NCBI GenBank assembly: GCA_030390025.1
Contig: CM059432.1
Coordinates: 49,602,001 to 49,666,000 of the forward strand
From: Squalus acanthias
Taxonomy: Eukaryota
Direction: 5' to 3'
Length of the DNA stretch: 64,000 bases
The position numbers and the translations under genes are program-made. Shown in pieces: positions 1 through 58,000 of this stretch; the first letter of the stretch is position 1, and every line of letters begins with the position of its first letter. Under the pieces are notes generated by a model. That model was given only the letters and a program-made list of their open reading frames with translations. It did no database searches and was not told the origin of the DNA.

Positions 1-465
1 TTTAGTCTGTCCCTTATGTTCATGATGTATAAGAAGAAGGTAGGCAGTGGGATGTCTGCTTGGATTGATTCAGTACAGAGCAGCTTTTTAGCAAGATTAA
101 CTCAAAATTGAACACTAGGACAATTTTTTTTTCTGTATCAAAAGAAATTTCCGTATCAAAAGAAATTGTCAGTGTAACTCTTGGCACTCAAGGAGGTATG
201 TCATGGTAGATAGAAATTATGTAAATATAGGATACTGTGTTATAAGGTAGCAAAAAGAAACAGGGTTCTGGTGAAAAACTAATACAAAAGATAGTAAACA
301 AAGGAAGTGGGGACTGGTAGTTAAAGTGCGAGAGAAAGATAATGGCCCAAAATTTGCGGTCCTGATGACAGTGAACTGGCAGTGTTTGCCATCATTTCAC
401 CTTTGAAACTGACGGCAACTTCAGGATTTAGTGCAAGCGCAGCCTAACGCAGAAATCCTGAAGTT

Positions 466-3400
466 TAAAAAAAATTCATTTATGGGATGTGGGCGTCGCT
501 GGCAAGACCAGCATTTATTGCCCATCCCTAATTGCCCTTGAGAAGGTGGTGGTGAGCTGCTTTCTTGAACCACTGCAGTCCATGTGATGAAGCTACTCCC
601 ACAGTGCTGTTAGGTAGGGAGTTCCAGGATTTTGACCCAGCGACGATGAAGGATCGGCGATATACTTCCAAGTCAGGATGGTGTGTGACTTGGAGGGGAA
701 CTTGGAGGTGGTGGTGTTCCCATGCGTCTGCTGCCCTTGTCCTTCTAGGTGGAAGAGGTCGCGGGTTTGGGAGGTGCTGCCAAAGAAGCCTTGGCGAGTT
801 GCTGCAGTGCATCTTGCAGATGGTAAACACTGCAGCCACGGTACACCAGTGGTGGAAGGAGTGAATGTTTAAGGTGGTCGATGGGGTGCCAATCAAGCGG
901 GCTGCTTTGTCCTGGATGGTGTTGAGCTTCTTGAGTGTTGTTGGAGCTGCACTCATCCAGGCAAGTGGAGAGTATTCCATCACACTCCTGACTTGTGCCT
1001 TGTAGATGGTAGAAAGTCTTTGGGGAGTCAGGAGGTGAGACACTCGCCACAGAATACCTAGCCTCTGACCTGCTCTTGTTGCCACAGTATTTATGTGGCT
1101 GGTCCAGTTAAGTTTCTGGTCAATGGTGACCCCCAGGATGTTGATGGTGGGGGATTCGGCGATTGTAATGCCATTGAATGTCAAGGGGCGGTGGTTAGAC
1201 TCTCGCTTGTTGGAGATAGTCATTGCCTGGCACTTCTGTGGCGCGAATGTTACCTGCCACTTATCAGCCCAAGCCTGAACGTCATTCACATCTTGTTGCA
1301 TGCGGGCATGGACTGCTTCATTATCTGAGGAGTTGTGAATGGTGCTGAACACTGTGCAGTGATCAGCGAACATCCCCATTTCTGACCTTATGTTGGAGGG
1401 AAGGTCATTGATGAAGCAGCTGAAGATAGTTGGGCCTAGGACACTGCCCGGAGGAACTCCTGCAGCGATGTCCCGGGGCTGTGATGATTGACCTTCAATC
1501 ACCACAATCATCTTCCTTTGTGCTAGGTATGACTCTAGCCAGTGAAGAGTTTTCCCCCAATTCCCATTGACTTCAATTTTGCAGGGGCTCCTTCGTGCCA
1601 CACTCGCTCAAATGCTGCCTTGATGTTAAGGGCAGTCACTCTCACTCTCCTCTGGAATTCAGCTCCTTTGTCCATGTTTGGACCAAGGCTGTAATGAGGT
1701 CGGGAGCCGAGTGGTCTTGGCGGAACCCAAACTGGGCATCAGTGAGCAGGTTATTGGTGAGTAATTGCCGCGTGATAGCACTGTCGATGACACCTTCCAT
1801 CACGTTGCTGATGATTGAGAGTAGACTGATGGGGCGGTAATTGGCCTGGATTGGATTTGTCCTGCTTTTTGTGGACTGGGCAGGACATACCTGGGCAGTT
1901 TTCCACATTGTCGGATAGATGCCAGTATTGTAGCTGTACTGGAACAGCTTGGCTAGAGGCGCGGCTAGTTCTGGAGCACAAGTCTTCAGCACGATAGCCG
2001 GGATGTTGTCAAGGCCCATAGCCTTTGCTGTATCCAGTGTGCTCAGTCGTTTCTTGATATCACGTGGAGTGAATCGAATTGGCTGAAGACAGGCTTCTGT
2101 GATGGTGGGGACCTCAGGAGGAGGCCGATATTGATCAAATACTCAGCACTTCTGGCTGAAGATGGTTGCAAATGCTTCAGCCTTGTCTTTTGCACTCACG
2201 TGCTGGGCTTCACCATCATTAAGGGTGGGGATATTCATGGAGCTTCCTCCTCCCGTTAGTTGTTTAATGGTCCACCACCATTCGCGACTGGATGTGGCAG
2301 GACTGCAGAGCTTTGACCTGATCCGTTGATTGTGGGATCGCTTAGCCATGTCTAAAGCATGCTGCTTCCACTTTTTAGCATGCATGTAGTCCTGTGTTGC
2401 AGCTTCCCCAGGTTGGCACCTCATTTTTAGGTACGCCTGGTGCTGCTCCTTGCATGCTCTTCTACACTCCTTATTGAACCAGGGTTTGTCCCCTAGCTTG
2501 ATGGTAATGTTAGAGTGAGGGATATGCCTGGACATGAGGTTACAGATTGTGGTGGAATACAATTCTGCTGCTGCCCCACAGCACCTCATGGATGCCCAGT
2601 TTTGAGCTGCTAGATTTGTTCTGAATCTATCCCATTTAGCACGGTGGTAGTGCCAAACAACATGATGGAGGGTGTCCTCAATGTGAAGACAGGACTTCAT
2701 CTCCACAAGGACTGTGCGGTGGTCACTGCTACCAATACTGTCATGGACACATGCATCTGCGACACGTAGATTGGTGAGGATGAGGTCAAGTAGGTTTTTC
2801 CCCTCGTGTTGGTTCTCTCACACCTGTTGCAGGCCCAGACTGGCAGCTATGTCCTTCATGACTCGGCCAGCTGTGGTGCGACTGAGCCACTCTTAGTGAT
2901 GGTCGTAGAAGTCCCCCACGCAGAGTACATTCTGTGCCCTTGCTACTCTCAGTGCTTCTTCCAAGGGGTGTTCAACATGGCAAAGTACTGATTCATCAGC
3001 TGAGGGAGGACGGTAGGTGGTAATCAGCAGAAGATTTCCTTGCCCATGCTTGACCTGAAGCCATGAGACTTCATAGGGTCCAGAGTCAATGTTGAAGAGT
3101 CCCAGACTGTATACCACTGTGCCACCACCCCTGGTGGGTCTGTCCTGCCGGTGGGACAGGACATACCCAGGGATGGTGATGGAGGAGTCTGGGACATTGG
3201 CTGTAAGGTATGATTCTGTGAGGATGACTATGTCAGGCTGTTGCTTGACTCGTCTGTGGGACAGCTCTCCCAATTCCCAGATGTTGGTGAGGAGGACTTT
3301 GCAGGGTTGACTGAGCTGAGTGTGCCATTGCCGTGTTCGTAGCCGAGGTCGATGCTGGGTGGTCCGTCTGTTTTCATTTTTATTATTTTGTTTCGTAGCC

Positions 3401-3736
3401 ATTTGTTATAACTGAGTGGCTTGCTAGGCCATTTCAGAGGTCAGTTAAGAGTCAACCACATTGCTGTGGGTCTGGAGTCACATATAGGCCAGCCCAGGTA
3501 AGGACAGCAGATTTCCTTCCCTGAAGGACATTAGTGAACCAGATGGGTTTTTACAACAAACCAATAGTTTCATGGTCACCATTACTGATACTAGCTTTTT
3601 ACTCCAGATTTATTTAATTAACTGAATTGAAATTCCCCAGCTACCGTGGTGGGATGTGAACTCACATCTCTGGATCATTAGTCCAGGCCTCTGGATTAGT
3701 AGCCCAGTGACATTACCACAATGCTACCGTTCCATT
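466..3736 (-). mobile_element. Near full-length CR1-group LINE, ORF2 only (APE endonuclease + RT, frameshifted), with tRNA-like 5' head
   Basis: ORF pieces 2893-3402 (PDIVILTESYL endonuclease), 2143-2706, 1642-2019 (NYRPISLLS, QFGFR) and 528-1601 (GVPPGSVLGP, FADH); agtt duplicated at 462-465 and 3737-3740. Confidence 0.92.
3640..3733 (-). promoter_or_regulatory. tRNA-derived Pol III internal promoter-like head (A box / B box) of the LINE
   Basis: Minus strand reads GGTAGCATTGTGG (A-box like) ... GAGTTCACATCCC (B-box like); the related copy at 9565-9808 has TAGCCTAGTGG and GAGTTCAAATCCC. Confidence 0.7.
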
Positions 3737-4487
3737 AGTTGCGGTCTGTCATTCATTGCTCTGACACAGGCCACGCTGTGCCGTTCCACCCCCCCCCGCC
3801 AGAGAGCCGGCAGTTAGTGTAATCTGTCAAATCATGGAAACTGATGACAACTTCAGCTCTTCCATGGTAATTACACTGTTCAATTCCCCATTAAAGGTTA
3901 GACCCTTTTGGATTAGCTGTAACTGGGGTTTTAACAGCATATTGACTGATAAACAAAGGTTAGGGCCCTGAAAAACGAATTTTGATTTTGTGGAGTGTCA
4001 AATGTGTCTATTTTTTTAAAATTAAATTTTTTAAGGAACTTTAAAAAAAAATCTTTTTTTTAAAGTTTATTCATCTTTATTTCAGATTTGCCTTTTCCCC
4101 ATGTGAGAGACCCAATCTTTGTTTTTCTCTCTCTAATATTTTTTAAAAGTTAGAATCAAAGGAGCTGACCCACTTCCTGGTTCACTGTCTGTGAGAATTC
4201 TGCGTTTTGATTGGCTGCTTAGACAGCTTATTGACATCACAGCAGCTCTTCGCTGGGAATCCCCGTTAACTTCTGTTAATTTCAATTACGCGTTGGAAAA
4301 CCTGAAATCCTTGCCACAGAAATCGCGAGATCTTTGTGTGAAGCTTACTTCGGGGCCAGCAGCGAATGCCTTTGCTTCACCGCTGACCGTAAATTCCAGG
4401 CCTATTATAATATTAGGTAAAAAAAGAAGAGATTGTGTGTGCTAATAAATATATCTGTAATTTTTTTTGTGACATTGATGAAACATT

Positions 4488-9224: not shown

Positions 9225-10084
9225 CCCTGTACAAACCCAGGCAGTGCACTCCCAAATTTACCGATGAATTCTTTGAGGTGATGGTCTGTGAAGTAAGGCA
9301 AAGGTGAGGTGCCCTGCTTGGCACTCCAGAACATCCTCCCCATAAAAGAGACGTACAAAATGGGTGGCAACACCCAGAGGACCTGGCTGCAAATGAGAAA
9401 GAAATCTGCCACGGCTATACCAAGTAATTGTTTTCTCCTATTCTTTTTAGACAGCTGCCTCATATAAACAACTGGACAATGTTATAGTTCTTTACCATGC
9501 ATAGCCATACTGCAGCAGATCACATTACTTCTTAATTTGTGGGCAATTCCTTGTTGCCTGATGGCATTAAGAGTCAACCACATAGTATGGGACTGTAGTC
9601 ACATGTAGGTCAATAGGTTAGGGTGGCAGGTTCCCCAAAAGACATTCGTAAACCAGTTAGGTTTTTTCTACAATGTGGCAGCTTTTTCATGCTAGCCCAC
9701 AAATTGCCAGATTTATTGAATTTAATTTCACAATTTACTACAGTGGGATTTGAACTCATGGCCTCTGCATCATTAGTGCTAGTTCCATAGCCACTAGGCT
9801 ACCATACCTTTGATTAACTTATAAATTAAACTCTTGCTACCTTTCCACCTTAAAGGATCTTCACACAGCAAACCTTTCTAATAAAAGCTAATTTCATTTA
9901 CTCATACACGATAGGCTGCAGAATAACCATTTGAAACTTGTAGCATCTTAAGACTGCTTTTCCAATTTCAGGATAAGATGCCTCAGAACAGGAGAGAGAA
10001 GACCCACATGCGAGTAGGTCCCTATAACTTCAATTTCTCGACTCCATTTGAAGAGGCCACACTGTAACAATTTCTGGGCTTTAG
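9225..10084 (+). pseudogene. Old Harbinger Myb/SANT gene remnant (exon 1 about 9225-9422, exon 2 about 9971-10084)
   Basis: Translates PKFTDEFFEVMVCEVRQR* ... RTWLQMRKK and, after ttcag, DKMPQNRREK...TPFEEATL*, resembling exons 1-2 of the younger copies; stops present. Confidence 0.55.
9565..9808 (-). mobile_element. tRNA-derived SINE-like copy homologous to the 5' UTR of the LINE at 466-3736
   Basis: Shares AAGAGTCAACCACA...GTCACAT.TAGG and CCAGATTTATT with 3447-3660; intact A and B boxes. Confidence 0.75.
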
Positions 10085-11739: not shown

Positions 11740-13150
11740 ACAGCAACAACATGCATTTATATAGCATCTTTAATGTAGAAAAATATCCCCCAAAAAATCA
11801 GAGGCGTAATCCAAAAGAGGACACTGAGCAAAAGTAGGACATATTAGCTTAGGTGACTAAAAGTTTGTTCAAAGCATTGGATTTTGTAATATATGTGGGT
11901 AGAACAAATGAAGGACAGAGACAGGATGAGTTGCTAGTCAAGGTGTTTGTTTACTAGGCCAGAGTGAACTGAGCATGCTCATACCAAACCATGTGATAAA
12001 CCATGTGATAATACCTTACACTGTTTTCCCCTTAAAAAATGTATGTATTCCCCACTCAAATACAACAAAACTATGGTCCCACCTTTCCCAGCATTACATG
12101 TACCACATAACAAAAACTCAGGCTTTTTTTTTAAATGAACTACAAATTCAGTTTAACAACAGGTTTGCGGAGGCTTCCTGATCTCTTTAAACAAGGTTTT
12201 GGTGTTGAACCAATTTTCGTGCTGTTTTGTTTTGGTTCCGAACTCAAAGATGATCCTGTATCTATCTCAGATTTGTTTGAACCTATATGTTTCACTTCAA
12301 TCCACTTTGCTGACAAGTGATTCAAGATCACTGTCCAATCCGTTAAAGGTGTTTTCATCTACTCTTTTCAGTATTGAGTCTTTTGAGTCTCATCTGCAAT
12401 CTCAGTTGCATTCACAGGAAAGTCTTTGTCAACTGCACCTAGTGTGAAAATAACACCTTCACTCTCAACACGAGTCATCATGTGGCAACCCGGACAAGGC
12501 ATCTGCGATTGTGTTTTGCTTTGAAGTGCGATATTCAGTCGTGTAGTCATATTGTGACAACAACACTGCCCAACATTGCATTCCTGATGCGGCCATTGCA
12601 GGGATGGCAGATTTGGGCCCCAATATTACTAGGAGCGGTTTGTGATTGGTTATCAGGGTAAACTTTCTGCCGATCAGGAAGTGTTGGAATTTCTTGATTC
12701 CAAACACTATGGTGAGTGCTTCCTTTTCAATTTGCGTGTAGTTTCTTTCGCTCTTTGTGAGGGTTCGCGATGTGAACATAATTGGTTTCTCTTGGCCGTC
12801 ATGCATTACGTGGCTTATTACAGCTCCCACACCATAACTAGAAGCATCACACGCTAACTTAAGCTCACACTCTGTGTTGTAGTGCACAAGTAGAGCATCG
12901 CTAGAGAGACTTCTCTTACAAGCATTGTAATGCACCGAATTTCTAGCCCTACAGGTTTTAAGGAGGTTCTTATAAGAGGAGAGGGAGGTGGAGAGGCTGA
13001 AGTGTTTAGGGAAGGAATTCCATAGTGTGGGGTTTAAGAGACCCCAATTTTGAATTGAAGGGAGAAGAGGGTGCACAAGAAGCTGAAATCAGAGGAATAG
13101 AGAGTTCAGAAAGGGGAGCTGTATCACTGGAGGAAGTTACAGAGATACTC
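11740..13150 (-). mobile_element. Old L2 3' fragment split by a Gypsy insertion
   Basis: CATTTATATAGC.CTTTAA L2 3' end at about 11752; continues at 12954 (GGTTTTAAGGAG...GGAATTCCA) colinear with 5570-5790. Confidence 0.7.
11885..12953 (-). mobile_element. Internally deleted Ty3/Gypsy LTR retrotransposon (3' LTR 11885-12020, PPT, pol RNase H)
   Basis: 136-bp TGTAA...TTACA LTR; polypurine tract AAGGGGAAAACAG immediately upstream on the minus strand; ORF 12465-13076 has LACDASSYGVGAVISH, SERNYTQIEKEAL and TNHKPL; near-TSD ggattt/ggtttt. Confidence 0.85.
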
Positions 13151-13179
13151 TCCGATCAACCTCTGATCAATTTCAATTT

Positions 13180-15530
13180 CAATAGCAGCTTGCATTATTT
13201 ACTACCTTTCATGTAGAAAAAACATTCACAGACGTTTCACAGAGGTGTAATCAAAAAAAATGGATGCTAAGCCAAAGAAGGAGATATTTGGAGGGATGAA
13301 CAAAAGCTTGGTCAAAGAAGTGGGTTTTAAAGAAGGCGTTTATATAAGGATAGGGAGGTTGAGCGGTGGAGGGGTTTAGGAGGGAATTTCAGACATGGGG
13401 TCGAGCCAGCTGAACGCACAGCTGCTAATGCTGGACCGAAGGTAGGGGCGATGCACTAGCAGCCAGAGCCAGAGTTTGTGTGATTTGTAGGGCTGGAGGT
13501 GGTTTATAGAAAGTTTGTGGCAGTGGATGAAGACTTTAGTCTTCCAAATGATTATCTGGAAGAAATTGTATCTCCTCCAAGACTAGATCTTGGACAAGCA
13601 GGCTGATAGTTCATAGAAACATAGAAACATAGAAGATAGGAGCAGAGTAGGCCATTTGGCCCCTCGAGCCTGCTCCACCATTCAGTGCGATCATGGCTGA
13701 TCATCCAAACTCAGTATCCTGCCCCTGCTTTCTCCCCATATCCCTTGATCCCCTTAGCCTTAAGAAATATATCTAACTCCTTCTTGAATATATTTAATGA
13801 ATTGGACTCAACTGTCTTCTGTGGTAGAGAATTCCACAGGTTCACCACTCTCTGGGTGAAGAAATTCCTCCTCATCTCAGTCCTAAATGGCTTACCCCTT
13901 ATCCTTTGACTGTGAACCCTGGTTCTGGACTCCCCCACCATCGGGAACATCCTTCCTGCATCTAGTCTGTCTAGTCCTGTTAGAATTTTATAAGTTTCAA
14001 TGAGATCCCCTCTCATTCTTCTAAACTCTAGCGAATACAAGCCCAATCGACCCAATCTCTCTTCATACGTCATTCCTGCCATCCCAGGTATCAGTCTGGT
14101 GAATCTTCACTGCACTCCCTCCAAGGCAAGAACATCCTTCCTCAGATAAGGCGACCAAAACTGCACACAATACTCAAGGTGTGGTCTCACCAAAGCCCTG
14201 TACAACTACAGCAAGACCTCCTTGCTCCTGTACTCGAATCCTCTCGCTATGAAGGCCAACATACCATTTGCCTTCTTAACCGCCTGCTGCACCTGCATGC
14301 TTACCTTCAGCGACTGGTGCACAAGGACTCCCAGGTCTCGTTGCACTTCCCCTTTTCCCAATCTATTGCTGTTCAGAGAATAATCTGCCTTCCTGTTTTT
14401 GCCACCAAAGTGGATAACCTCGCATTTATCCACATTATGCTGCATCTGCCATGCATCTGCCCAATCACCCAACCTGTCCAAATCATACTGGAGTTTCTCT
14501 GCATCCTCCTCACAGCACACACGCCCACCCAGCTTTGTGCCGTCTGCAAACTTGGAGATATTACATCTAGTTCCCTTGTCTAGATCATTAATATATATTG
14601 TGAATAACTGGGGTCCTAGCACCAATCCCTGCGGTACCCCACTAGTCACTGCCTGCCACTCGGAAAAAGACCTGTTTATTCCAACTCTTTGCTTCCTGTC
14701 TGCCAACCAGTTTTCTATCCAAGTCAGTACCTTACCTCCAATCCCATGTGCTTTAACTTTGCATGCTAATCTCTTATGCGGGACCTTATTGAAAGCCTTC
14801 TGAAAGTCCAAATACACCACATCCACTGGTTCTCCCTTATCTATTCTACCAGTTACATCTTCAAAAATTAGTCAAGATTAGTAGATTAGTCAAGCATGAT
14901 TTACCTTTTGTAAATCCATGTTGACTTTGTCCGATCCTGTCACTATTTTCCAAGTGCTCTGCTATTGCATCTTTTATAGAGGACTCTAGCATTTTCCCCA
15001 CTACCGATGTCAGGTCAGATGCCATGGAGCAGTTGAGAGAGGTAGTGTGGAGGTAGAGCTGGGTGTCACCAGCCATCCCTATATCTGCAGATGATGTCAC
15101 AAAGGGGAAGTAAATAGATGTATGTAGATGTAGAAGAGGTGACCAGGGATTTTGTTTTGGGGGACTTCTTAGATACTGTGCAGGGGTGGGAAGAGAAACC
15201 ATTGCTAGAGAGGCTCTGGCTATGATTGGATAGGTAAGATTGCAACCAAGTGAAGGCAGTTCCACAGAGTTGGTGAGGTGTTGGAGGAGGTTGGTGCAGT
15301 CGACTTTGTCAAAGGCAGCAGAGAGGACAAATAGAACAAGGAAGTATAATAAACCACACTCACAGTCACAGACAACGTTGTTCAAGATTTTGGCTAGGAT
15401 CATTTTGGTGCTATGGGAGGGGAAATATGTTCAAAAGGCTCGAAACAGGGAGTTGCAAGAGAGATGGGCATGTATTTGGGAGGTGATGACACATTCAAAC
15501 ACTTTGGCAAGGAAAGGTAGTTTGCAATGA
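13180..15530 (-). mobile_element. Degenerate L2 LINE hosting a CR1 insertion
   Basis: L2 3' end at 13185-13610; RT motif LSAAFDKVD in ORF 14861-15403. Confidence 0.65.
13612..15015 (-). mobile_element. CR1 LINE, 5'-truncated RT to 3' end
   Basis: ORFs 14206-14826 (DFQKAFNKVPH, SGVPQG, KFADG) and 13711-14082; (TTTCTATG)n tail. Confidence 0.92.
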
Positions 15531-21275: not shown

Positions 21276-21279
21276 TAAA

Positions 21280-24200
21280 GTTTAGTTAGTTTTGGGATAT
21301 TAAATGAACCCAATTTAATACTGATGGTTGGCGAATATTACCGTTGTCTTTTTCTCTCTAAGTTAGGGCAGGGGGTTAAACTAAGAAGTTTAGTTAGTCG
21401 TATAATAAATAGAGGCATGGCGGAGCACCTCAGTCCCGGTGAATGCACGAATGCACATCCTGTGCCATGTGGGAACTCCCGGACGCTTCTCGTGTCCTGG
21501 ACAACCACACGTGCAGGAAGTGTCGTCAGCTCGAGGAACTGGCGTCACTGCAGTGCATCCGCAAGGCTGAGAGCTACATGGATACCACGTTTCAGGAGGT
21601 GGTCACCCCACAGTGTAAGATTGTGCAGCAGAGAGGGAATGGGTGACCGCCAGACAGACAAGGAGGACCAGGCAGGTAGTGCAGGAGCCCCCTGAGTGCA
21701 TCTCATTCTCTAACCTGTATTCTGAATACTGGTGAGGGCGATGGTTCCTCTGGGGAGTTCAGCCAGAGCCAAGTCCACGGCACCATGGGTGGCTCAGCTG
21801 TCGGTGGTGGGGGGGTGGGGGGGCGGGTGGTGGGGATGAGGGTGGGTGGGGGGGGTTGGGGGGAAGAGGAAGATCAGGAAAGCAATAGTGATAGGGGATT
21901 CAATAGTTCGGGGAACAGACAGGCGTTTCTGCGGCTGCAGACGTGACTCCAGGATGGCATGTTGCCTCCCTGGTGCCAGGGTCAAAGATGTCACTGAGCG
22001 GTTGCAGGACATTCTGAAGGGGAGGGGTGAACAGGCAGAAGTCATGGTCCATATTGGTACCAATGACATGCGTAGCAAGAGGGATGAGGTCCTGCAGGCA
22101 GAATTTAGGGATCTAGGAAAAAGGTTAGTAAGCAGGATCTCAAAAGGTAGTAATCTCCGGATTACTCCTGGTGCCATGCGCGAGTGAGTACAGAAATAGG
22201 AGGATAGAGCAGATGAATGCGTGGCTGGAGAGATGGTGCAGGAGGGAGGGCTTTAGATTCCTGAGACACTGGGACCGGTTTTGGGGGAGGTGAGACCTGT
22301 ACAAACCGGACGGGTTACACCTCAACAGAGCTGGGACCAATATCCTCGTGGGGAGGTTTGCTAGTACTGTTGGGAGGGTTTAAACTAGCTTGGCAGGGGA
22401 ATGGGAGCCTGAGCGTAGATTTAGAAGGGAGAGAAGCAAAGCTGGAAATGGATGGTAGAAAATTAGTAAGCGAGATTGGAAGGCAGAGGAAACAAAAGCT
22501 AGAAAATAGGCAACAAAGGGGTTCGACAGTGCTTAATGGTATATACTTCAATGTAAGGAGTCTAGGGAATAAGGCAGATGAGCTGAGGGCACAGATAGAC
22601 ATGTGGAAGTATGATATTATAGCTATTATTGAAAAATGGCTGAAAGAAGGGCAGGAATGGCAGCTCAACATTCCTGGTTACAGGGTTTTCAGACGCGATA
22701 GAGAGTGGGATAAAAAGGGAGGGGGGGTCGCAATATTGGTTAAAGAAACAATTACAGCTGTGAGGAAGGATGTTATGTTAGAAGGATCATCAAATGAGGC
22801 CATATGGGTTGAACTGAAGAACAAAAAAGGGGCAATCACAATGTTGGGAGTGTACAACAGTCAGAGGGAGATAGAAGAGCAAATATGAAGGCAAATTTCT
22901 GAGAAGTGCAAAAACAATAGGGCAGTAATAGTACACTAATATTAACAGGGATAAAATTAGTGTAAAAGATATAGAGGGTGCAGAATTCTTAAAATGCATT
23001 CAGGTGAACTTTTTAGCCAGTACGTAGCAAGCCCAACAAGAGAAGGAGCGGTTCTGGACTTCGTTTTAGGGAATGAAGCTGGGTAGGTGGAAGGGGTATC
23101 AGTGGTAGTGATTATAATTCAGTTAGATTTAGCGAAGTTATGGAAAATGACAAAGATAGACCAGGAATAAAGGGGGAGAAATTCGGTTGGTTAGCGCCTC
23201 CCGTTAGTGCCTGGGGGGGTGGGGGGGGGTGCTAACGGGGCGCTAAGGGGTTAGCGACCGGGCACGGCGAATGCAGTGACGCCCGCGAACTTCAGTGCCA
23301 GTTTAGTGCTGGCGCTAACTCTTACCGCTTGGGCCTCTAGCGCCTCGCAGATCGTGATGTCATAAAGTGCGCAGCGCCCCGTTATCGCCCGGATGTGAAA
23401 TTGCCTCCGCCCCCTGCTGTATCGCCGGGCGTGAACAATGGCAGGAAGAGGAGGCGGTGTCAACTCAGCTGGCCACTTGGGGTGCGCTAATTAAAGGGAG
23501 TGGTTTTCAGGTAGGCCAACCTTTATTATTTGCACCAGTCAGGTGCCTGCTCAAAGTTTTTGATGTTTCATTGCTGCAAGATGTCCAAGCCCTCCACTTT
23601 GTGAGAGTGTTTGGGGCTGTAATGGCAGTCACGCAGGTTGCCTTGCAACGCAGACCTGCCGATAAGTAGGTCGTGCACCATCATTGGCCCTTCCCTTTAA
23701 GCGAGGGAAGCAGCCTCTGATGCCGTTAGCGATGCGCTCCAAATTGTTCGGCGCTCTGTCGCTACCGCCCCACTCTCGGACTTTAGCGCCCTAAGAGAAG
23801 TGAAGTGGTTAGTGCTTGATTTAGCGCTCCACTTCCCTCTTGGAGCGCTAAAGCTGAATTTCCCGGCAGGAGAGAATCATAAGCGCCTGGCGCTACTTTT
23901 TCTACTTTGCAAAAGTTAGCGCCCCTGGGGCACTACAGAATTTCTAGCCCAAAAGTTCTCAATCAGGGAAAGGCCAATTTTACTAAGCTGAGATGTGATT
24001 TAGCAAAAGTGGACTGGAAACAGCTACTTGAAGGTAAATCAGTGTCAGAGCAGTGGGAGGTGTTCAAGGAGGAGATAGTGAGGATTCAGAGCAAATATGT
24101 TCCCACAAAGGAAAAGGGTGGGACTCCCATATCTAGAGGCCCCTGGATGTCAAGGATCATACAGGGTAGGTTAAGGAAAAAAGAGAAGCTTTTGTCAGAT

Positions 24201-25953
24201 ACCAAGAGCTCAATACTACAGAAAGACTGGAGGAATATAGAAAGTGCAGGGGTGAAATTAAAAAGAAAATTCGGAAAGCAAAGAGAGGGCATGAAAAAAT
24301 ATTGCCAAGGAAAACCCAAAGATGTTTTATAAATACATAGAGAGCAAGAGGATAACTAAGGAAAGAGTAGGGCCTATTAGAGACCAAAAAGGTAACCTGC
24401 GTGTGGAGGCAGAAGACGTGGGTATGGTTCCTAATGAATACTTTGCGTCTGTCTTCACAAAAGAGGGGGACAATGCAGACATTGTAGTTCAGGAGGAGGA
24501 CTGTGAAATATTAGATGGGATAAACATAGTGAGAGAGGAAGTATTAAGGGGTTTAGCATCTTTGAAAGTAGATAAATCGCCAGGCCCGGATGAAAGGTAT
24601 CCCAGGCTGGAAGAGAAGCAAGGGAGGAAATAGCGGAGGCTCTGACCATCATTTTCCAATCCACTCTGGCTACAGGTGTGGTGCTAGAGGACTGGAGAGC
24701 TGCTAATGTAGTACTGTTGTTTAAAAAGGGAGAAAGGGATAGACTGAGTAACTACAGGCCAGTCAGCCTAACCTCGGTGGTGAGTGAATTATTGTTCAGA
24801 AAAGCTAAGTGGCAGGAAGCAAAGGGTAATGTTTGATGGGTGTTTTTGTGACTGGAAGGCTGTTTCCAGTGGGGTTCCACAGGGGTCAGTACTAGGTCCC
24901 TTGCTTTTTGTGGTATATATCAATGATTTAGACTTCAATGTAGGAGGCATGATTAAGAAGTTTGCAGATAATACAAAAATTGGCCGTGTGGTTGATAGTG
25001 AGGAAAATAGCTGTAGACTGCAGGAAGATATCAATGGACTGGTCAGGTGGGCAGAAAAGTGGCAAATAGAATTCAATCCGGAGAATTGTGAGGTAATGCA
25101 TTTGGGGAGCGCTAACAAGGCAAGGGAATACACAATAAATGGTAGGATACTGAGAACTGTAGAGGAACAGTGGGACCTTGGCGTGCATATCCACAGATCT
25201 CTGAAAGTAGCAGGACAGGTAGATAAGGTGGTTAAGAAGGCATACGGGATACTTTCCTTTATTAGCCGAGGCATAAAATATGAGAGCATGGAGGTTATGC
25301 TTGAACTGTATAAAACATTAGTTAGACCACAGTTAGAGTATTGCATTCAGTTCTGGTCACCACATTACAGGAAAGAAGTGATTGCACTAGATAGGGTACA
25401 GAGGAGATTTACGAGGATGTTGCCAGGACTGGAGAATTTTAGCTGTGAGGAAAGTTTGGATAGGCTGGGGTTGTTTTCATTAGAACAGAGGAGACTGATG
25501 GAAGATTTAATTGAGGTGCATAAAGTTATGAGGGGCCTAGATAGAATGGATAGGATGGACCTATTTCCCTTAGCAGAGAGGTCAATAACCAGGGGGCATA
25601 GATTTAAAGTAATTGGTAGAAGGATTAGAATGGAGTTGAGGAGAACCTTTTTCACCCAGAGGGTGGTGTGGGTCTGGAACTCACTGCCTGAAGGGGTGGT
25701 AGAGGCAGAAACCCTCATCGCATTTAAAAATGTGGGACCTTGTCAAAGGCCTTGCTAAAATCCATATAGACTACATCAAACACGCTGCCCTCATCGACCC
25801 TCCTCGTGCACTTGAAGTGCCATAACCTACAGGGCTACAGACCAAGAGCTGGAAAGTGAGATTAGGATGGCTAGCTCTTTTTTGGCCGGCACAGACACGA
25901 TGGGCTGAATGGCCTCCTTCTGTGCCGTAAATTTCTATGATTCTATGATTCTA
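21280..25953 (+). mobile_element. Near full-length CR1 LINE (ORF1 Zn-finger + SGNH esterase; ORF2 APE + RT), disabled
   Basis: CTSC...CRKC (21443), IVIGDSIVR/VHIGTND (21846), endonuclease 22358-22888, RT 24784-25758, (TTCTATGA)n tail; MITE insertion and internal deletion. Confidence 0.93.
23172..23950. mobile_element. Non-autonomous Harbinger (MITE) related to the 50082-54160 element
   Basis: TIRs GGGGGAGAAATTC / GAATTTCTAGCCC; TSD aaa; TTAGC.CCTCCCGTTAGTGCC shared with the 54160 end; interrupts CR1 ORF2. Confidence 0.9.
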
Positions 25954-36300: not shown

Positions 36301-36613
36301 CCTTGGAGCACACTTTGGCCTACTGCTGGATATAGTTGCTGAATGAAGCGATCACAACAATGGGCATAAAGTTTAAAGTCTCCAGAAGAAGCAAGGCTGC
36401 TTGCAGGCCTTAAATCCAGCAGCATTGATGACATCATTGGAGGCGACTTTCTGTATGAAAAAACTCATTGGGCCAGGGGTTTCCACACGCTGGAAATCAA
36501 GTGCCCAATTAGGGCAAAATTGCACTTTTTCCCCACTTCACCTCGGAGTCGTGGTCCTGACACAAAAACCACCTGACACGCCCCAGCCTGCCCCCAATGG
36601 CAAAATCGAGCCC
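33394..36613. mobile_element. Harbinger derivative retaining the Myb/SANT gene, lacking the DDE core
   Basis: 15-bp TIRs GGGTTCGATTTTGCC / GGCAAAATCGAGCCC; Myb exons on the minus strand. Confidence 0.88.
34509..36333 (-). pseudogene. Harbinger Myb/SANT-like DNA-binding protein, 3 exons
   Basis: Exon 1 PRFDEASLQAL...WLQVAQEV...RTWLQCRKRFHDL|gtgagt; exon 2 EKRAHNKRERARTGGG with TAG; exon 3 open (ORF 34509-35537, heptad-like); start appears as ATA. Confidence 0.8.
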
Positions 36614-39600
36614 GACGTGTCTGCTGCTCAAGAAACTTCAGCTCCGAGTTGAGGAGCTGGAGTCCGAGCTGCAGAGATTGCGAGACATCAGGGAGGGAGA
36701 AAGTTACCTGGACCTTTTGCTCCAGGAGGCAGCCACACCCCTAAGATTAAATACTTTAGAATTGAGATGTGGTCAGGGACAGGAGGGTGTGACTGTGAGT
36801 GAGGCAGGTACGGGGATCCAGGAGGTAGTATTGCAGGAGCCTCAGTCCCTGCACTTGCCCAATAGATTCAAGGTTCTTGCAAACCTTGTGGACAATTGCG
36901 AGGACTGCAGGGAGGACGAGCAAACTGACCATGGCACCGTGGTACAGGAAGCCATTGAAGTGGGGGGAGTAAAAAGGAAGGTGGTTGTTGTAGGCAACAG
37001 TATAGTTAGGGGGATTGACACTGTTCTCTGCAGCCAGGATAATGAGTCCCGAAGGCTATGTTGCCAACCTGGTGCCAGGGTAAAGGACATCTCCTCCGGG
37101 CTGGAGAAGAACTTGGAGTGGGAGGGGGAAGATCCAGTTGTCGTGGTCCACGTAGGTACCAACGACATAGGTAGGACTAAGAAAAAGGTTCTGCTGAGAG
37201 AGTTTGAGCAGCTAGGGACTAAATTAAAAAGCAGAACCACAAAGGTTATAATCTCTGGATTATTACCTGAGCCACGAGCAAATTGGCATAGGGTCAATAG
37301 GATCAGGGAGATGAATGCATGTCTCAAAGATTGGTGTGGGAGAAGTGGGTTTCGATCCGTGGGGCATTGGCACCAGTACTGGGGAAAGAGAGAGCTGTTC
37401 CATTGGGACGGACAACACCTGAACCATGCTGGGACCAGAGTTCTAGCAAATTGAATAACTAGGGAGGTAGATAGGGCTTTAAACTAAATAGTGGTGGGGG
37501 GGGGGGGGGGGGGGGGGGGGGGAGGGTGGTCCCGGTGGAGAGAAATCTAGATTGCTAAAGAGAAAATACAAGTCAGCAGTGCAGGAAATTGATTGGGGTA
37601 AGGATAACCAGATTGTGTCAGGAAGATGTCTAAAAATGTTAAAAAGACAAATCTAAAGGCACTGTATCTGAATGCATGAAGCATTCAAAATATGGTAGAC
37701 GAATTAACAACGCAAATAGATGTAAACGGATACAATATAATTGCAATTACGGAGACATGGCTACAGGGTGACCAAGGCTGGGAGCTGAATATCCAAGGAT
37801 ATTCGATATTTAGGAAGGACAGGCAAAAAGGAAAAGGAGGTGGGGTGGCATTGTTAATAAAGGATGAAATCAGAGCAATAGTGAGAAAGGATATTGGCTC
37901 AGAAAATCAAGATGTAGAATCAGTCTGGGTGGAGCTAAGAAGCACCAAGGGGCAGAAAACATTGGTGGGAGTTGTCTATAGGCCTCCAAACAGTAGTGGT
38001 AATGTAGGGGATGGCATTAAACAGGAAATTAGAGATGCATGTAACAAGGGTACTACAGTAATCATGACTGACTTTAATCTACATATAGACTGGCCAAACC
38101 AAATTAGCAATAATACTGTGGAGGATGAATTCCTGGAGTGTGTATGAGATGGTTTTTCAGACCAGTACGTTGAGGCGCCAACTAGGGAAAAGGCTATCCT
38201 AGATTGGGTATTATGCAATGAGAAGGGGTTAATTAATAATCTTGTTGTGCGGGGTCCTTTAGGGAAGAGTGACCATAACATGTTAGAATTCTTCATTAAG
38301 ATGGAAAGTGAAGAAGTCCAATCCGAAACTAGGGTCCTAAATCTAAACAAAGGAAACTACGAAGGTAGGAGGAGTGAGTTGGCTATGATAGATTGGGGAG
38401 CTTCATTAAAAGGCAAGACAGTGGATAGGCAATGGCTAACATTTAAGGAACAAATGCATGAATTGCAACAGTTATACATTCCTTTCAGGCACAAAAACAC
38501 AAAAGGAAAAGCAGCCCAACCATGGCTAACAAGAAATTAATGATAGTATTAGATCCAAAGAGGAGTCATATAATGTTACCAGAAAAAGTAGCAAGCCTGA
38601 GGATTGGGAGCAGTTTAGAGTTCAGCAAAAAAGGACCAAGAGATTGATTAAGAGGGGAAAAATAGAGTATGAGAGTAAACTTGTAAAGAATATAAAAGTG
38701 GATTGTAAAAGCTTCTACAAGTATGTAAAAAGAAAAAGAGTAGTGAAGACAAATGTAGGTCCCTTACAGTCAGAAATGGGAGAATTTATAATGGGGAACA
38801 AGGAAATGGCAGAGCAATTAAACAAATACTTTGGTTCTGTCTTCACAGAAGAGGACACAAATAACTTCCTAGAAATGCTAGGGAACCAAGGGTCTAGTGA
38901 GAAGGAGGAATTAAAGGAAATTAGTATTAGTAAAAATATAGTGCTGGAGAAATTAATGGGACTGAAAGCCGATAAATCTCCAGGGCCTGATAATCAGCAT
39001 CCCAGAGTACTAAAAGAGGTAGCCATGGAAATAATGGATGCATTGGTTGTCATCTTCCAAAATTCTATAGATTATGGAACAGTTCCTGCAGATTGGAGGG
39101 TGGCAAATGTAACCCCACTATTTAAAAAAGGAGATAGAGAGAAAACAGGGAACTACAGACCGGTTAGCCTAAGATCAGTAGTAGGGAAAATGCTAGAGTC
39201 TATTATAAAGGATGTGATAACAGGACACTTAGAAGTATCAATGGGATTAGACAAAGTCAACATAGATTTATGAAAGGGAAATTGTGTTTGACAAACCTAC
39301 TGGAGTTTTTTAAGGATGTAACTGGTAGAATAGATAAGGAAGAACCAGTGGATGTGGTGTATTTGGATTTTCAGAAGGCCTTTGATAAAGTCCCACAAAG
39401 GAGGTTAGTGTGCAAAATTAAAGCACATGAGATTGGGGGTAATATATTGATTGAATATTGGTTAACAGACAGGAAACAGAGAGTAGGAATAAATGGGTCT
39501 TTTTCAGGGTGGTAGACGGTGACTAGTGGGGTACCGCAGGGATTAGTGCTTGGGCCCCAGCTATTCACAATATATATCAATGATTTGGATGAGGGAACCA

Positions 39601-39717
39601 AATGTAATATTTCCAAGTTTGCTGACGACATGAAACTAGGTGGGATTGTGAGTTGTGAGGAGGATGCAAAGCGGCTTCAAGGCGATTTAGACAAGTTGAT
39701 TGAGTGGGAAAATACAT

Positions 39718-45384: not shown

Positions 45385-47362
45385 TATCATAGAACACATG
45401 GAATCATAGAATGATACAGCACAGAAGGAGGCAATTCGGCCCATCGTGCCAATGCCGCCTCTTTGGTAGAGCTGACCAATTAATCCCACTCGCCTGCTCT
45501 TTCCTCATAGCCCTGTAATTTATTTCCATTCAAGTATTCATCCAATTCTCTTTTGAATGTTACTATGAATGTGCTTTAACCACGCTTTTAGTCAGTGCAT
45601 TCCAGATCACAACAACACACTGTGTAAAAACATGATTCCTCTTTGCCAATCACTTTACTTCTGTGTCCTCTGGTTACTGACCCTTCTGCCACTGGAAACA
45701 GTTTCTCCTTATTTACTCTATCAAAACCATTCATGATTTTGAACACCTCTATCAAATCACCTCTTAACCTTCTCTGCTCTAATGAGAGCAACTGTAGCTT
45801 CTCCAATTTCTCCACATAACTGAAGTCCCTCACCCCTGGTACCATTTCAGTAAATCTCCTCTGCACCCTCTCCAAGGCCTTGACATCCTTCCTAAAGTGT
45901 GGTGCTCAGAATTGAACACAATACTCCAGCTGAGTCCTAACCAATATTGTAGCAAGGTTTAGCATAACTTTCTTGGTTTTGTACTCTATTGCTCTTTTAA
46001 TAATGCCAAGGATCTCATATGCTTTTTTAACAGCCTTCTCAACTTGTCCTGCCACCTACAAAGATTTGTATACATACACCCCCAGGTCTCATATTCCTGC
46101 ACCCCCTCTAAAATTGTACCATTTAGTTCATATTGCCTTTAAAAAAAATGTTTTTTATTCATTCATGGGATGTAGGCATCACCGGCAAGGCCAACATTTA
46201 TTACCCATCCCTGACTGCCCTTGAGAAGGTGGTGGTGAGCCACCTTCTTGAACCGCTGCTGTCCGTATGGTGAAGGTACTCCCACAGTGCTGTTAGGTAG
46301 AGAGTTGCTGGACTTTGACCCACCAATGATGAAGGAACAGCGATATATTTCAAAGTCAGGATGATGTGTGACTTGGGGGGAGCTTGGAGTTGGTGGTGTT
46401 CCCATGTGCCTGCTGCCCTTGTCCTTCTAGGTGGTTGAGGTCGCGGGTTTGGAAGGTGCTGTCGAAGATGCTGCAGTGCATCTTGTAGATGGTACACACT
46501 GCAGCCACGGTACGCCAGTGGTGAAGGGAGTGAATGTTTAAGGTGGTCGATGGGGTGCCAATCAAGCGGGCTGCTTTGTCCTGGATGGTGTCGAGCTTCT
46601 TGAGTGTTGTTGGAGCTGCACTCATCCAGGCAAGTGGAGAGTATTCCAACACACCCCTTACTTGTGCCTTGTAGATGGTGGAAAGGCTTTGGGGAGTCAG
46701 GAGGTGAGACACTCGCTGCAGAATACCTAGCCTCTGACCTGCTCTTGTTGCCACAGTATTTATGTGGCTGGTCCAGTTAAGTTTCTGGTCAAAGGTGATC
46801 CCCAGGATGTTGATGGTGGGGGATTCGGCAATGGTAATGCCATTTAATGTCAAGGGATGGTGGTTAGACTCTCGCTTGTTGGAGATAGTAATTGCCTGGC
46901 ACTACTGTGGCGCGAATGTTACCTGCCACTTATCAGCCCAAACCTGAATGTCGTCCAGGTCTTGTTACATGCAAGCATAGACTGGTTCATTACCTGAGGA
47001 ATTGTGAATGGAACTGAACACTATGCAATCATCAGCGAACATCCTCCCTTCTGACCTTATTATTGAGGGAAGGTCATTGATGAAGCAGGATGTTGCCCTG
47101 AGGAACTCCAGCAGGCACAATGCTGGTACATGTTATTGGCAGCTTCTTTAAATGTCTCTCCTCACTCTTCCTACCAAAGTGTATCACTTTGCACTTCTCT
47201 GTGATAAATTTCATCTGCCCATTTTACCAGTTTGTCTATGTCCTTCTAAAGTCTGTTACTATCCTCCTCATTGTTTACTATATTTTATGAGTTTCGTATC
47301 ATCTGCAAACTTTGAAATGATACCCTGTATACCCAAGTCCAGGTCATTAATATATATCAAAT
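45385..47362 (-). mobile_element. CR1 LINE 3' part interrupted at 46141-47110
   Basis: ORF 45588-45875 (RRLRGDLIEVFK); RT resumes at about 47150 (IYINDLD...KFADD on minus). Confidence 0.85.
46141..47110 (-). mobile_element. 5'-truncated copy of the LINE at 466-3736
   Basis: ORF 46356-46853 nearly identical to the 528-1601 translation. Confidence 0.92.
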
Positions 47363-55090: not shown

Positions 55091-58000
55091 GATTCACAAG
55101 TCAACTTCGTGCTGCCTACTCATTATAATGATTTCTGCATGCAGCCATCGCTAACCTTGCTGTTAATTGGCTGCACACATCAGCAGGGGATCCAATATTG
55201 TTAGTAACTTGCACTACTTCAAGCTAGCCTGCACGACTTAAAGCTAGCCTGCACCTCTTAAAGAGGAGGTGCATTGTGGCTGGAGCAGATGCTGGGAGTC
55301 ATTCTGAAATTGAATCTGACCTGGGAAAGAGTGAAGAATTTTTATTTTTTTAATTCATTTATGGGATGTGGGCATCGCTGGCAAGGCCAGCATTTATTGC
55401 CCATCCCTAATTGCCCTTGAGAAGGTGGTGGTGAGCCGCCTTCTTGAACCGCAGCAGTCCGTGTGGTGAAGGTACTCCCACAGTGCTGTTAGGTAGGGAG
55501 TTCCAGGATTTTGACCCAGCGACGATGAAGGATCGGCGATATACTTCTATGTCAGGATGGTGTGTGACTTGGAGGGGAACTTGGAGGTTATGGTGTTCCC
55601 ATGCGCCTGCTGCCCTTGCCCTTCTAGGTGGAAGAGGTCGTGGGTTTGGAAAGTGCTGCCGAAGAAGCCTTTGGTGAGTTGCTGCAGGGCATCTTGTAGA
55701 TGGTACACACTGCAGCCACGGTACGCCGGTGGTGGAGGGAGTGAATGTTTAAGATGGTGGATGGGGTGCCAATTAAGCGGGCTGCTTTGTCCTGGATGGT
55801 GTCGAGCTTCTTGAGTGCTGTTGGAGCTGCACTCATCCAGGCAAGTGGCGAGTATTCCATCACACTCCTTACTTGTGCCTTGTAGATGGTGGAAAGGCTT
55901 TAGGGAGTCAGGAGGTGAGACACTCGCCTCTGACCTGCTCTTGTTGCCACGGTATTGATGTGGCTGGTCCAGTTAAGTTTCTGGTCAATGGTGACCCCCA
56001 GGATGTTGATGGTGGGGGATTCGGCGATGGTGATGCTGTTGAATGTCAAAGGGTGGTGGTTAGACTCTCGCTTGTTGGAGATAGTCATTGCCTGGCACTT
56101 GTGTGGTGCGAATGTTACCTGCCACTTATCAGCCCAAACCTGAACATCGTTCAGGTCTTGTTGCATGCGGGCATGGACTGCTTCATTATGGCTAACCATG
56201 GGAGAGAAGGGGCACCCAGGTTTTTGGATGCTGCACTGGAGGTCTAGGTGGAAAGGAGGAGAGATGTCCTGTATCCTTAAGGGGGCAGGACCCCCCCCCC
56301 CACCACAAACACACGATGAGAAGGCAGTGGGAACAAATATCCGTGGAGGTCAATGCCAGGAGTTTAGCCCCAAGGACCTGAATGCAGTTCTGCAAGAAGT
56401 ATAATGACCTCACATGAGGAGTGAAGGTCAGTGAATGCATCTTCAAATGCCATATCCTACCAACTACACCATTAGCCTCAGCCACTGCTCAATTCACCAC
56501 AGCTCCATCACTTACCTACCAACAATCTCTATCAATCAGAACTCATACCTAACATTCATATGCTTCACCTCACCCTCACACACTTAGCACTGTTGCAAGC
56601 GCCACATCTCACACCTTGCACACACTGCCAGCTATTCAACCATGACAGCCACATCACCCAAACATATTGCACAACACTCACTGACACGCTGCCCTCTCTC
56701 TTGCAGGAGAAGGTGGCGCACAACCAGAGACAGTGGTGCACAACCAGCGGCAGCTGGAACTGACTGGAGGGGAAGAGATCCGTCTGCATGTTCTAACCAC
56801 CATGGAGGAGATGGTGCTGGCCATTATGGGAAGGGCCATTGCTGAGGCCTTGACCACCGGCAGGGCTGAATCCATTGAAGATAACGGTATCCTCATACAT
56901 AATCCTCCTTCTCACATCCTACTTCCCCTTCATCCTGCACTCTCTTCTGACTTACTTTCTCCTCTCCCCTCACCACAACCCAACCATTGTCCTTTTTCAT
57001 TTCAGATATCAAAGAACTGCAACCTGGCCAGGCAGTGGTGAAAGAGGAAGAAGACAGTGATGATGAAGACACACGGTCACTCGATTTCACACTCTCAGCC
57101 ACCAGCTTAGATAGTGACACTGTACATATCTTAGACGATAGCATAGAGGCAGGATCTGCACGTGGTGAGACACCGGGGCACAAGTGCGCTGCAGCCAGGG
57201 CAGGGGGCAAGGAATGTGCAGGTACCAGCTCGCCGGAAGGTGAGGTCGCACACGAGTTCTGCTGCAGTGGATTCAGATGAGGACTTTAATGGGCCAGGCC
57301 ACAGAAAAAGGCTGATGGGTGTACACACCAAAATGCTTGGTGCATTGAGAAGTCTTCCAGAAAGCCTACGTTCAATGTCGAGCATGGAGGAGTCCAGCAC
57401 CAACTTGACACAGGGCTTTGAAATTTGGAGCCCATCCTTTCCAGCATGGAACTGGTGGCCAACTCCATCAACACACTTGTGGACCCAATGCAGCATCTGA
57501 TGGCCGATATATCAGCTTTCATTGCAGCACAAGCAGCTGCCACCCAACATCTGAGTGCTGCAGTGAAAGCTCAGACTGCTTCCATCATGGCTTCGGATAT
57601 CAGTGTTTAAAGGGGCTTCCAGGTTGTCACACCAGTCCAGTAATATGTCCTCCAACAGAATACTAGGAATGCTGAGGCACCATCCCAGGTTGACAACATC
57701 CGTGCTTCCACCCCGCCACTCCACCAGTGCCCTTGCTGTTGCCTGTCAGCCAGCCAGCCCAGACTGCGGCCGCCCTGCCGAGATGGTGCAGTCTGCAGCC
57801 TGGCCTTCTAGGCCCAGAGCTGATCGAGGTCGTCCTCCAAGGCCATCTGCAGTCTCCTTCATGAAAGTCAGCAGCCTTCCACCAGCCATGCTGCAGCCAC
57901 TGGGGTAGCACCTCGTAGGAGCACTAGGACAGGCAAAGGCACAGGGAATGCAGGCATAAAGGAATGCACAAGGGTGATTCTTTAATTCTGTATGCACTAT

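Follow-up and report, generated by a model that had tools for sequence, protein, structure and literature searches.

Whether a long interspersed nuclear element (LINE) that encodes its own endonuclease and reverse transcriptase (RT) can be a gene of RNA polymerase III (Pol III) is a question raised by a locus of Squalus acanthias (assembly GCA_030390025.1, contig CM059432.1). The stretch analysed, here called the window, comprises 64,000 nt (positions 49,602,001 to 49,666,000 of the forward strand), and an earlier note on it had proposed that its segment 466-3736 is a Pol III-transcribed LINE with a tRNA head. This segment belongs, as a dead copy, to an old and abundant family of non-LTR (non-long terminal repeat) retrotransposons of ~3.3 kb, with a single endonuclease-RT open reading frame (ORF) and without ORF1. 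The 331-nt leader of the family is a complete tRNA-derived head of a short interspersed element (SINE) followed by a SINE body, and it is integral to the family. The structural finding is real and robust, and it is undescribed as far as our literature search reached. That the LINE would be transcribed by Pol III from its own internal A- and B-box promoter is plausible from the sequence, and we assign this reading a probability of about 0.5.

The genome searched amounts to 3.7 Gb in 3,882 contigs, and the repeats of the window and their nearest protein matches are of shark type. The window copy is laid out as follows.

3733 down to ~464, minus strand: whole element, with head, leader, broken ORF, 3' untranslated region (UTR) and T8 tail
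3640..3733, minus strand: tRNA-derived head, the extreme 5' end of the element (motif coordinates; Rfam and ARAGORN on other copies)
3726-3716, minus strand: A-box-like TAGCATTGTGG in the head (motif reading)
3707-3687 and 3686-3666, minus strand: tandem 21-nt duplication of the anticodon-arm region, between the A- and B-box-like motifs
3663-3651, minus strand: B-box-like GAGTTCACATCCC in the head (motif reading)
3403..3639, minus strand: SINE-type body, the remaining ~240 nt of the 5' leader (core and depth bump)
3559-3445, minus strand: leader core common to other SINEs, 74% identical to an older SINE at 9567-9673
3432-3424, minus strand: mini upstream ORF ATGGCCTAG in the leader of the window copy
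528..3402, minus strand: decayed single endonuclease and RT ORF (ORF list, Pfam)
first third of the ORF, minus strand: endonuclease region (by homology)
~1845-1122, minus strand: RT region (Pfam RVT_1 in the two 3' ORF pieces)
475..527, minus strand: 3' UTR or tail of 53 nt, common to the LINE and its SINE derivatives and conserved in all 3' ends read
519-514, minus strand: AATAAA in the 3' UTR (motif reading)
512-498, minus strand: hairpin GCTGGTcttGCCAGC with a 6-bp stem and 3-nt loop, GCTGGC-ctt-GCCAGC
486-475, minus strand: end of the 3' UTR, CCCATAAATGAA (motif reading)
464..474, minus strand: tail of the window copy, T8 (474-467) then AAA (read from the letters)

A SINE lying by chance beside a 5'-truncated LINE could produce such a layout, and the appearance of this single locus is all that speaks for it. 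The family was sampled with two probes, for each of which the best 40 of ~6,500 candidates were scored (40 of 6,482 for the ORF probe). Among 29 other copies found with an ORF-only probe (2950-3370), 28 continue upstream into the SINE-like leader, 17 of them to within 18 nt of its 5' end and 11 only part of the way; the remaining copy ends at 3399. The head probe (3380-3736) identified 29 other loci with 92-94% identity, and in 25 of these the match goes on through 1.8 kb or more of the ORF, mostly as far as the edge of the locus. The junction is the same, base for base, in the 28 ORF-probe copies and the 25 head-probe loci, which refutes a chance local chimera. The earlier note's chief reservation, that the head might be absent from most full-length copies, is settled by the same counts in favour of the head. 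Among the exceptions to the head probe, L003 stops ~1.0 kb and L020 ~0.8 kb into the ORF, while L004 and L010 break off at 3339. These last two lie ~180 kb apart on the same contig, are near-identical, and carry the same GC-rich sequence after the break; they look like a segmental duplication of one interrupted copy.

An ORF1 upstream of the endonuclease-RT ORF, usual in CR1/L2 elements, is missing here, as the earlier note had said: the 331-nt leader, too short to hold one, is all that precedes the ORF, and 29/29 copies show nothing else upstream. The upstream flanks of 12 truncated copies are mutually unrelated, save for two short matches of 33-37 nt, and they therefore argue against a second kind of 5' end and against an ORF1. 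Likewise, no other upstream sequence and no ORF1-bearing subfamily was found among the 29 ORF-probe copies, a sample (best 40 of 6,482) that a diverged parent could escape.

In 38 aligned full-length copies, the 5' end of the element is sharply defined, the flanks diverging just before GGGAACGGTAGCGTAGTGG. In the better-preserved copy L004, the Rfam tRNA model matches the head with 22.3 bits (E value 0.025; the gathering score is 29), and a 22-nt insert in this alignment corresponds to the duplicated anticodon arm. ARAGORN predicted a tRNA (Ile-AAT or Thr-AGT) at the head in 4/35 loci; in the window copy, it predicted none, and no RNA family, ribozymes included, reached the Rfam gathering level. 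According to the Rfam alignment, the element begins one base (three in some copies) ahead of tRNA position 1, the same point at which tRNA-derived SINEs begin. The family A box TAGCGTAGTGG, which starts at base 9 of the element, and the B box GAGTTCAAATCCC, ~50 nt further on, match the type-2 Pol III consensus; the gap between them is lengthened by the 21-nt duplication. In one SINE copy (L101:852-1211), this 21-nt unit is expanded to ~17 tandem copies. A placement of the head inside target-site duplications, a check proposed in the earlier note, was clear in only 1/15 full-length copies, where a duplication of 23 bp encloses everything from the head through A7 (L015 with L093). In the other 14 the flanks share at most 7 nt, and no clear duplication is present.

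The coding region of the window copy is broken into at least four frames (open pieces 3405-2896, 2817-2146, 2142-1645 and 1607-531, with the stop TAG at 530-528). Pfam RVT_1 matched the piece at 531-1607(-) with an E value of 4.5e-16 and, more weakly, that at 1645-2142(-). The window copy's own decayed pieces gave no endonuclease match (PF03372/PF14529). In the better copy L049 (P0001, a 568-aa open frame), both PF14529 (E value 1.3e-11) and PF03372 (E value 3e-08) were found at residues 43-242. The RT domain, an APE-type endonuclease N-terminal to it, and the occurrence of 5'-truncated copies are all traits of a CR1/Jockey-like LINE. Among proteins from outside the sharks, the nearest are unnamed endonuclease-RT proteins with 31-34% identity, and the RT is 28% identical (E value 4e-30) to that of LINE_B, a second element in the same window. 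The family is old, and its copies differ from the window copy by 6-14%. With a 568-aa probe, 11 loci other than the probe's own showed no stop within the match (77 scored).

The start of the ORF is unusual. The earlier note had placed it at ATG 3402, about 330 nt from the 5' end. The frame is indeed there (3402-2893 in the window copy, 331 nt from the 5' end at 3733), but the ATG itself is private to the window copy: among 39 aligned full-length copies it occurs once, and the others have ACC (30), ACT (6), ATC (1) or GCC (1). As a start codon for the family it was accordingly rejected. In the family, an in-frame TAA precedes the open frame, which contains no in-frame ATG and codes for a basic stretch ahead of the endonuclease. 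A conserved ACG (gct ACG aaa) is the sole in-frame start candidate, and a conserved out-of-frame ATG is also present. This ATG, ~21 nt downstream, opens an overlapping frame of ~60 codons (length by eye). The first ~30 codons of the family ORF (window 3410-3330 and the aligned copies) are Arg-rich and CpG-dense. Nine upstream ATGs lie within the 331-nt leader of the window copy. A frame without ATG behind a leader filled with ATGs would fit translation without cap-dependent scanning, but many LINE ORF2s are also translated unconventionally.

The leader also occurs apart from the ORF. A pattern consisting of the leader-end motif, 20-120 nt, and the tail motif has at least 2,151 exact matches in the genome (1,036 forward and 1,115 reverse); the reversed control has none. 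These ORF-less derivatives of ~400 nt, made of leader and 3' tail, are short and non-coding as SINEs are, which the 3.3-kb LINE coding for endonuclease and RT is not. Among the 100 matches listed there are many distinct junctions: some derivatives have GTTGTA joined directly to TTCAAGAAGG, and others retain AACCGCTACGAAAC or reach AATAATAAGAAT of the ORF start. Several retain 10-35 nt of the ORF start together with variable lengths of C-terminal coding sequence, and the whole SINE copies L102, L103 and L105 correspond to 3733-3407 plus ~560-473. Joints of the same type were obtained from contigs (kind uncertain) of four public runs from four organisms, placed on 300-3900; those from 530/538/557/566 to 3409/3410/3429/3430 fuse the leader to the last 60-90 nt. 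In 4/4 runs contig depth climbs from 5' to 3', the usual LINE gradient, and shows a bump over 3446-3566.

Thus, the partner SINEs are the LINE minus its ORF, produced on many occasions and with differing junctions. Given this many junctions, several independent internal deletions of the headed LINE appear to be the best account of them. The module itself is older, as one further feature of the window shows.

9530..9815, minus strand: older SINE of the same build, with tRNA head, 'aaattaaattcaataaatctgg' segment, related core and related tail (read by eye)

The core of this SINE is 74% identical to 3559-3445. Its presence shows that the head-plus-body module predates the LINE subfamily, and for this reason both a capture of the SINE module and a re-spawning of SINEs may have happened.

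How, then, might such an element be transcribed? According to the Pol III reading, transcription would be directed by the internal A and B boxes and begin with the element's first base, as for its SINE derivatives, so that the RNA would carry the promoter into each new copy. The absence of runs of four or more T (T4+) would permit read-through of the ORF, and the transcript would end at a run of T, either within the A-rich tail or directly behind it, or else in the flanking DNA. Being uncapped, this RNA would be translated without scanning, with the conserved ACG as candidate start. Four features would be explained together by this reading: the start of every full-length copy at a tRNA-like +1, the intact boxes of the family sequence, the SINE behaviour of the deletion products, and the lack of a Pol III terminator in a coding body of 3.3 kb. 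In its full form, it describes an autonomous, protein-coding Pol III-gene retrotransposon with a tRNA-type promoter, a terminator-free 3.3-kb body, uncapped RNA, and non-AUG translation without scanning, possibly via the SINE body, whose internal deletions spawned shark SINE families. This larger picture is put forward tentatively, as a possibility that falls a little short of an even chance.

The same 5' end could belong to an ordinary LINE transcribed by RNA polymerase II (Pol II), in which the head and body were captured as a 5' UTR, for example by template switching, and the Pol II start happens to sit at the first bases of the head. Polyadenylation would then be ordinary, and the scarcity of T runs would follow from a low T content and from codon usage. 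The older SINE at 9530-9815, being earlier than the subfamily, makes such a capture plausible, and LINEs are Pol II elements as far as is known (Kojima 2018, PMC5786205). Yet the Pol II start would have to coincide with the tRNA-like +1 in every full-length copy, and the family has intact A and B boxes, for which Pol II would have no need. Moreover, the same 5' end drives more than 2,000 SINE derivatives, which, as tRNA-headed SINEs, would be expected to be Pol III units, and the nine upstream ATGs and the missing in-frame ATG sit badly with cap-dependent scanning. On balance we consider the Pol II explanation a serious one, though doubtful.

It is also conceivable that the head is a passenger, the full-length RNA being mainly a read-through or host-gene co-transcript processed to the ends of the element; the LINE would then be promoterless, and the head would serve the SINE derivatives alone. 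All copies examined are decayed, and fragments of the family, 67-87% identical, lie inside annotated proteins of four shark species, from which it follows that co-transcription with genes happens. Against this, the 5' ends of 17 among 29 unselected copies fall within 18 nt of a single position, without any 5' transduced flank in common, which calls for a defined start or processing site, and a search of the window for RNA families, ribozymes included, gave nothing at the gathering level. A passenger head is therefore considered improbable.

A type-2 Pol III unit has no T4+ inside its transcribed region. On the sense strand of the window copy, there is none between 3733 and 475 (3,259 nt), where A4+ occurs 15 times, C4+ 11 times and G4+ 10 times; the first is the T8 at 474-467. 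On the plus strand of 466-3736 this T8 is the sole A4+ run (467-474), and 15 T4+ were counted. Both statements of the earlier note, that the sense strand is free of TTTT until the terminal T8 and that TTTT occurs more than ten times on the plus strand, are thus borne out. The 5' two-thirds of 58 copies (106,918 nt) contain 7 sense T4+, 580 A4+, 213 C4+ and 307 G4+, and the flanks of the same loci contain 6.5 T4+ per kb. Compared with independent, identically distributed (iid) bases, the observed and expected numbers of T runs in these copies are 16,293 and 13,811 for T1, 2,289 and 2,813 for T2, 294 and 573 for T3, 7 and 117 for T4, and 0 and 30 for T5+, with an abrupt fall at a length of four. 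Twelve further copies of the 3' third (9,975 nt) have 3 sense T4+. One of these, in L117, is ATTTTC, the window copy having ATCTTC at the same site. The other two, near window position 1010, could have marked a subfamily with an internal T4+; this was rejected, since the two copies concerned have private, independent C-to-T changes beside the ancestral GCCTTTCC (TTT).

Two 5'-truncated copies elsewhere in the window have no sense T4+ either. They had been described in the earlier note as siblings at 46141 and 55340; their bodies are indeed free of sense T4+, but they are truncated copies of the same family, not independent families.

46157..47088, minus strand: 5'-truncated copy of the same family, 0.93 kb, 89% identical, tail A6-CA-T8-AAA (sequence comparison)
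55352..56189, minus strand: 5'-truncated copy of the same family, 0.84 kb, 92% identical, tail TT-A7-T-A5 (sequence comparison)

Because T4+ is near-absent from the 58 and the 12 copies and from both truncated ones, the family ancestor can be taken to have had no sense T4+ across the whole 3.3 kb; ancestral states were read from per-copy counts and printed alignments, no family consensus having been built. From the composition of the window copy, 5.1 T4+ would be expected under iid (P(0) ~0.006; hand calculation). Ten other retroelement ORF fragments of the same genome, used as a control, contain 19 T4+ in 6,252 nt, or 3.0 per kb, against 0 in the window copy, a difference that counts against the Pol II explanation. 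Two further LINEs of the window, which the earlier note had said to carry an ORF1, were also compared.

36561-40763, plus strand: LINE_C, a decayed LINE with a GDSL/esterase-type ORF1 (PF13472) and an endonuclease (Pfam)
21279-25755, plus strand: LINE_B, a decayed LINE with endonuclease and RT and an upstream 138-aa frame without Pfam match (Pfam)

The claim of an ORF1 holds for LINE_C, and for LINE_B it comes down to the 138-aa frame. The pieces of LINE_B show no T4+ deficit (11 versus 7.6 expected). The window also contains Gypsy-type RT/RNase H remnants at 12468-15430 (-). Three transposase fragments of the DDE_Tnp_4 type (Harbinger-like) and, near them, an ORF matching Myb_DNA-bind_5 account for 41295-41798 (+), 52778-53491 (-), 58049-58459 (-) and 43427-44014 (-).

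Several results weigh against Pol III transcription, and most of them are at the same time the support for a Pol II LINE with a recruited leader. First, the 58 and 12 copies stem from one ancestor, so that the effective sample is a single T4-free sequence. A synonymous-codon shuffle of the 919 window codons expects only 2.8 +/- 1.4 T4+ (P 0.034-0.039) and 14.3 T3+ against 9 observed (P 0.033), with A, C and G runs as expected; the Phe codons of the window copy are 4 TTT and 17 TTC. A Markov-2 simulation of the copies expects 29.6 T4+ in 107 kb, or ~0.5 per ~1.8-kb copy, and much of the deficit therefore reflects a general paucity of TT and TTT. The open pieces of LINE_C, an ORF1-bearing element that is presumably Pol II-driven, are T-run poor as well (3 versus 7.7 expected, P 0.014), a similar relative deficit. 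One TCTTT lies inside the window copy (786-782). The longest stop-free frame among 77 scored matches has 844 of ~970 aa, and none is clearly intact. To our knowledge, neither natural Pol III transcripts of 3 kb nor translated Pol III RNAs form an established class. At the 3' end, the canonical AATAAA at 519-514 lies 40 nt before the A-rich tail and is compatible with Pol II polyadenylation, and 29 of 38 tails have no T4+, being mostly GAAT followed by A7-10, so that there is no fixed terminator. In sum, the lack of T4+ is a real feature and an uncommon one in this genome, but the headed family is not alone in being poor in T runs. The purging of Pol III terminators suggested by the earlier note gains from the T4-free ancestor and loses by the shuffle and by LINE_C, leaving moderate evidence that T runs may have been actively removed.

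The 38 tails comprise one set of 20 (two of which represent one duplicated locus), those of 15 full-length copies, and 3 in the window. The family tail can be written GAA-T(n)-A(m), where T(n) stands between the body and the A tail; n is mostly 1 and reaches 11, a point against the Pol II explanation. The nine tails with T4+ have it as T4-T11 directly after the body (6) or after the first A run (3), and As follow again in 9/9. The T8 was rejected as a family terminator on these counts; the copy noted earlier at 46141 does end in a T8, followed by AAA, but this is no family trait. Six SINE copies have the same T(n)A(m) pattern, 2/6 with T4+. Since most tails have no T4+, those copies would, under Pol III, need a terminator in the flanking DNA. 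An origin of the tail in the target site was rejected because the 5' flanks of the full-length copies do not end in A runs; in target-primed reverse transcription, moreover, a T run of the target would come to lie upstream of the insert rather than between its body and its tail. Termination at a T run followed by addition of A, as in T+ SINEs, would account for the T(n)A(m) tails, and slippage of the RT would do so equally well. A CR1-type 3' end consists of a hairpin and a short tandem repeat, without poly(A). The hairpin GCTGGC-ctt-GCCAGC is present in this family, and it is followed by T(n)A(m), mostly A7-10, and not by a microsatellite.

In the usual view, LINEs belong to Pol II and SINEs are Pol III parasites with only the 3' tail of the LINE in common, a line that the headed family blurs. 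If Pol III does drive the LINE, it would be the first autonomous Pol III-transcribed mobile element and a natural translated Pol III RNA, and some SINE 'bodies' would be LINE leaders functioning in the LINE's own life cycle. Even under Pol II, the family offers a concrete route of SINE birth, by internal deletion of a headed LINE, and a testable role as LINE leader for the enigmatic conserved central domains of SINEs. For annotation, the full-length unit will be missed by repeat libraries in which such copies are divided into a SINE and a 5'-truncated LINE.

No tRNA-headed or Pol III-driven LINE was found described in the full-text literature searched; Repbase and Dfam lay outside this search, and a prior entry there is possible. 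Among known systems, the closest is the HE1 SINE with its partner LINE HER1 of sharks and rays, reportedly the subject of papers by Ogiwara and co-workers in 1999 and 2002. In the portions available of later papers, HE1 is a member of the V-SINE superfamily and HER1 is a CR1-like LINE (PMC3747384, PMC4824008, PMC10468316). [quoted passage not shown] In the published scheme, as far as those portions go, the 3' tail alone is held in common, whereas here the SINE head and body are also part of the LINE, and the SINEs are forms of it that have lost the ORF; the pairs were compared by description only. The LINE of S. acanthias possesses the tRNA-derived head typical of SINE2 elements, and it possibly belongs with V-SINE/HE1, a group marked by an 80-bp V-domain in the body.

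Bipartite non-autonomous LINEs (ingi/RIME, L1Tc/NARTc, RTE, Vingi and R2 derivatives) resemble the present SINEs in that the short element consists of the 5' and 3' parts of an autonomous LINE, produced by repeated internal deletion. Kojima 2018 (PMC5786205) lists as sources only RTE, Ingi, Vingi and R2, and regards LINEs together with their bipartite derivatives as very likely transcribed by Pol II. Here, by contrast, the parent is CR1/Jockey-like (PF14529 and PF00078), and the common 5' part is a tRNA-type Pol III promoter, by virtue of which the bipartite derivatives are true SINEs.

The T+ SINEs B2, Dip and Ves are transcribed by Pol III, and their transcripts combine AATAAA with a T-run terminator and an A tail (PMC8466645); a 3' end of the order AATAAA, T(n), A(m) occurs in the same 9/38 LINE tails and 2/6 SINE tails here. 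They differ in being mammalian, L1-mobilised and non-coding; in the present family n is mostly 1, and AATAAA lies 40 nt upstream with a putative role in polyadenylation. Primate tRNA/LINE-1 chimeric insertions likewise join tRNA sequence to a LINE 5' end, in one retrotransposition event. In the accessible text these are 21 one-off loci, mostly with antisense tRNA halves, that founded no families (PMC13174262), whereas the head described here is sense, complete and promoter-bearing, and forms the 5' end of a family with thousands of copies. Finally, Cassandra, Helenus and Ajax are LTR retrotransposons with Pol III promoters derived from 5S RNA or tRNA, described in the text available as non-autonomous and non-coding (PMC10886601). 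Like the LINE of S. acanthias, they have the promoter of a small-RNA gene built into a retrotransposon outside the SINE class; unlike them, the element described here encodes its own endonuclease and RT.

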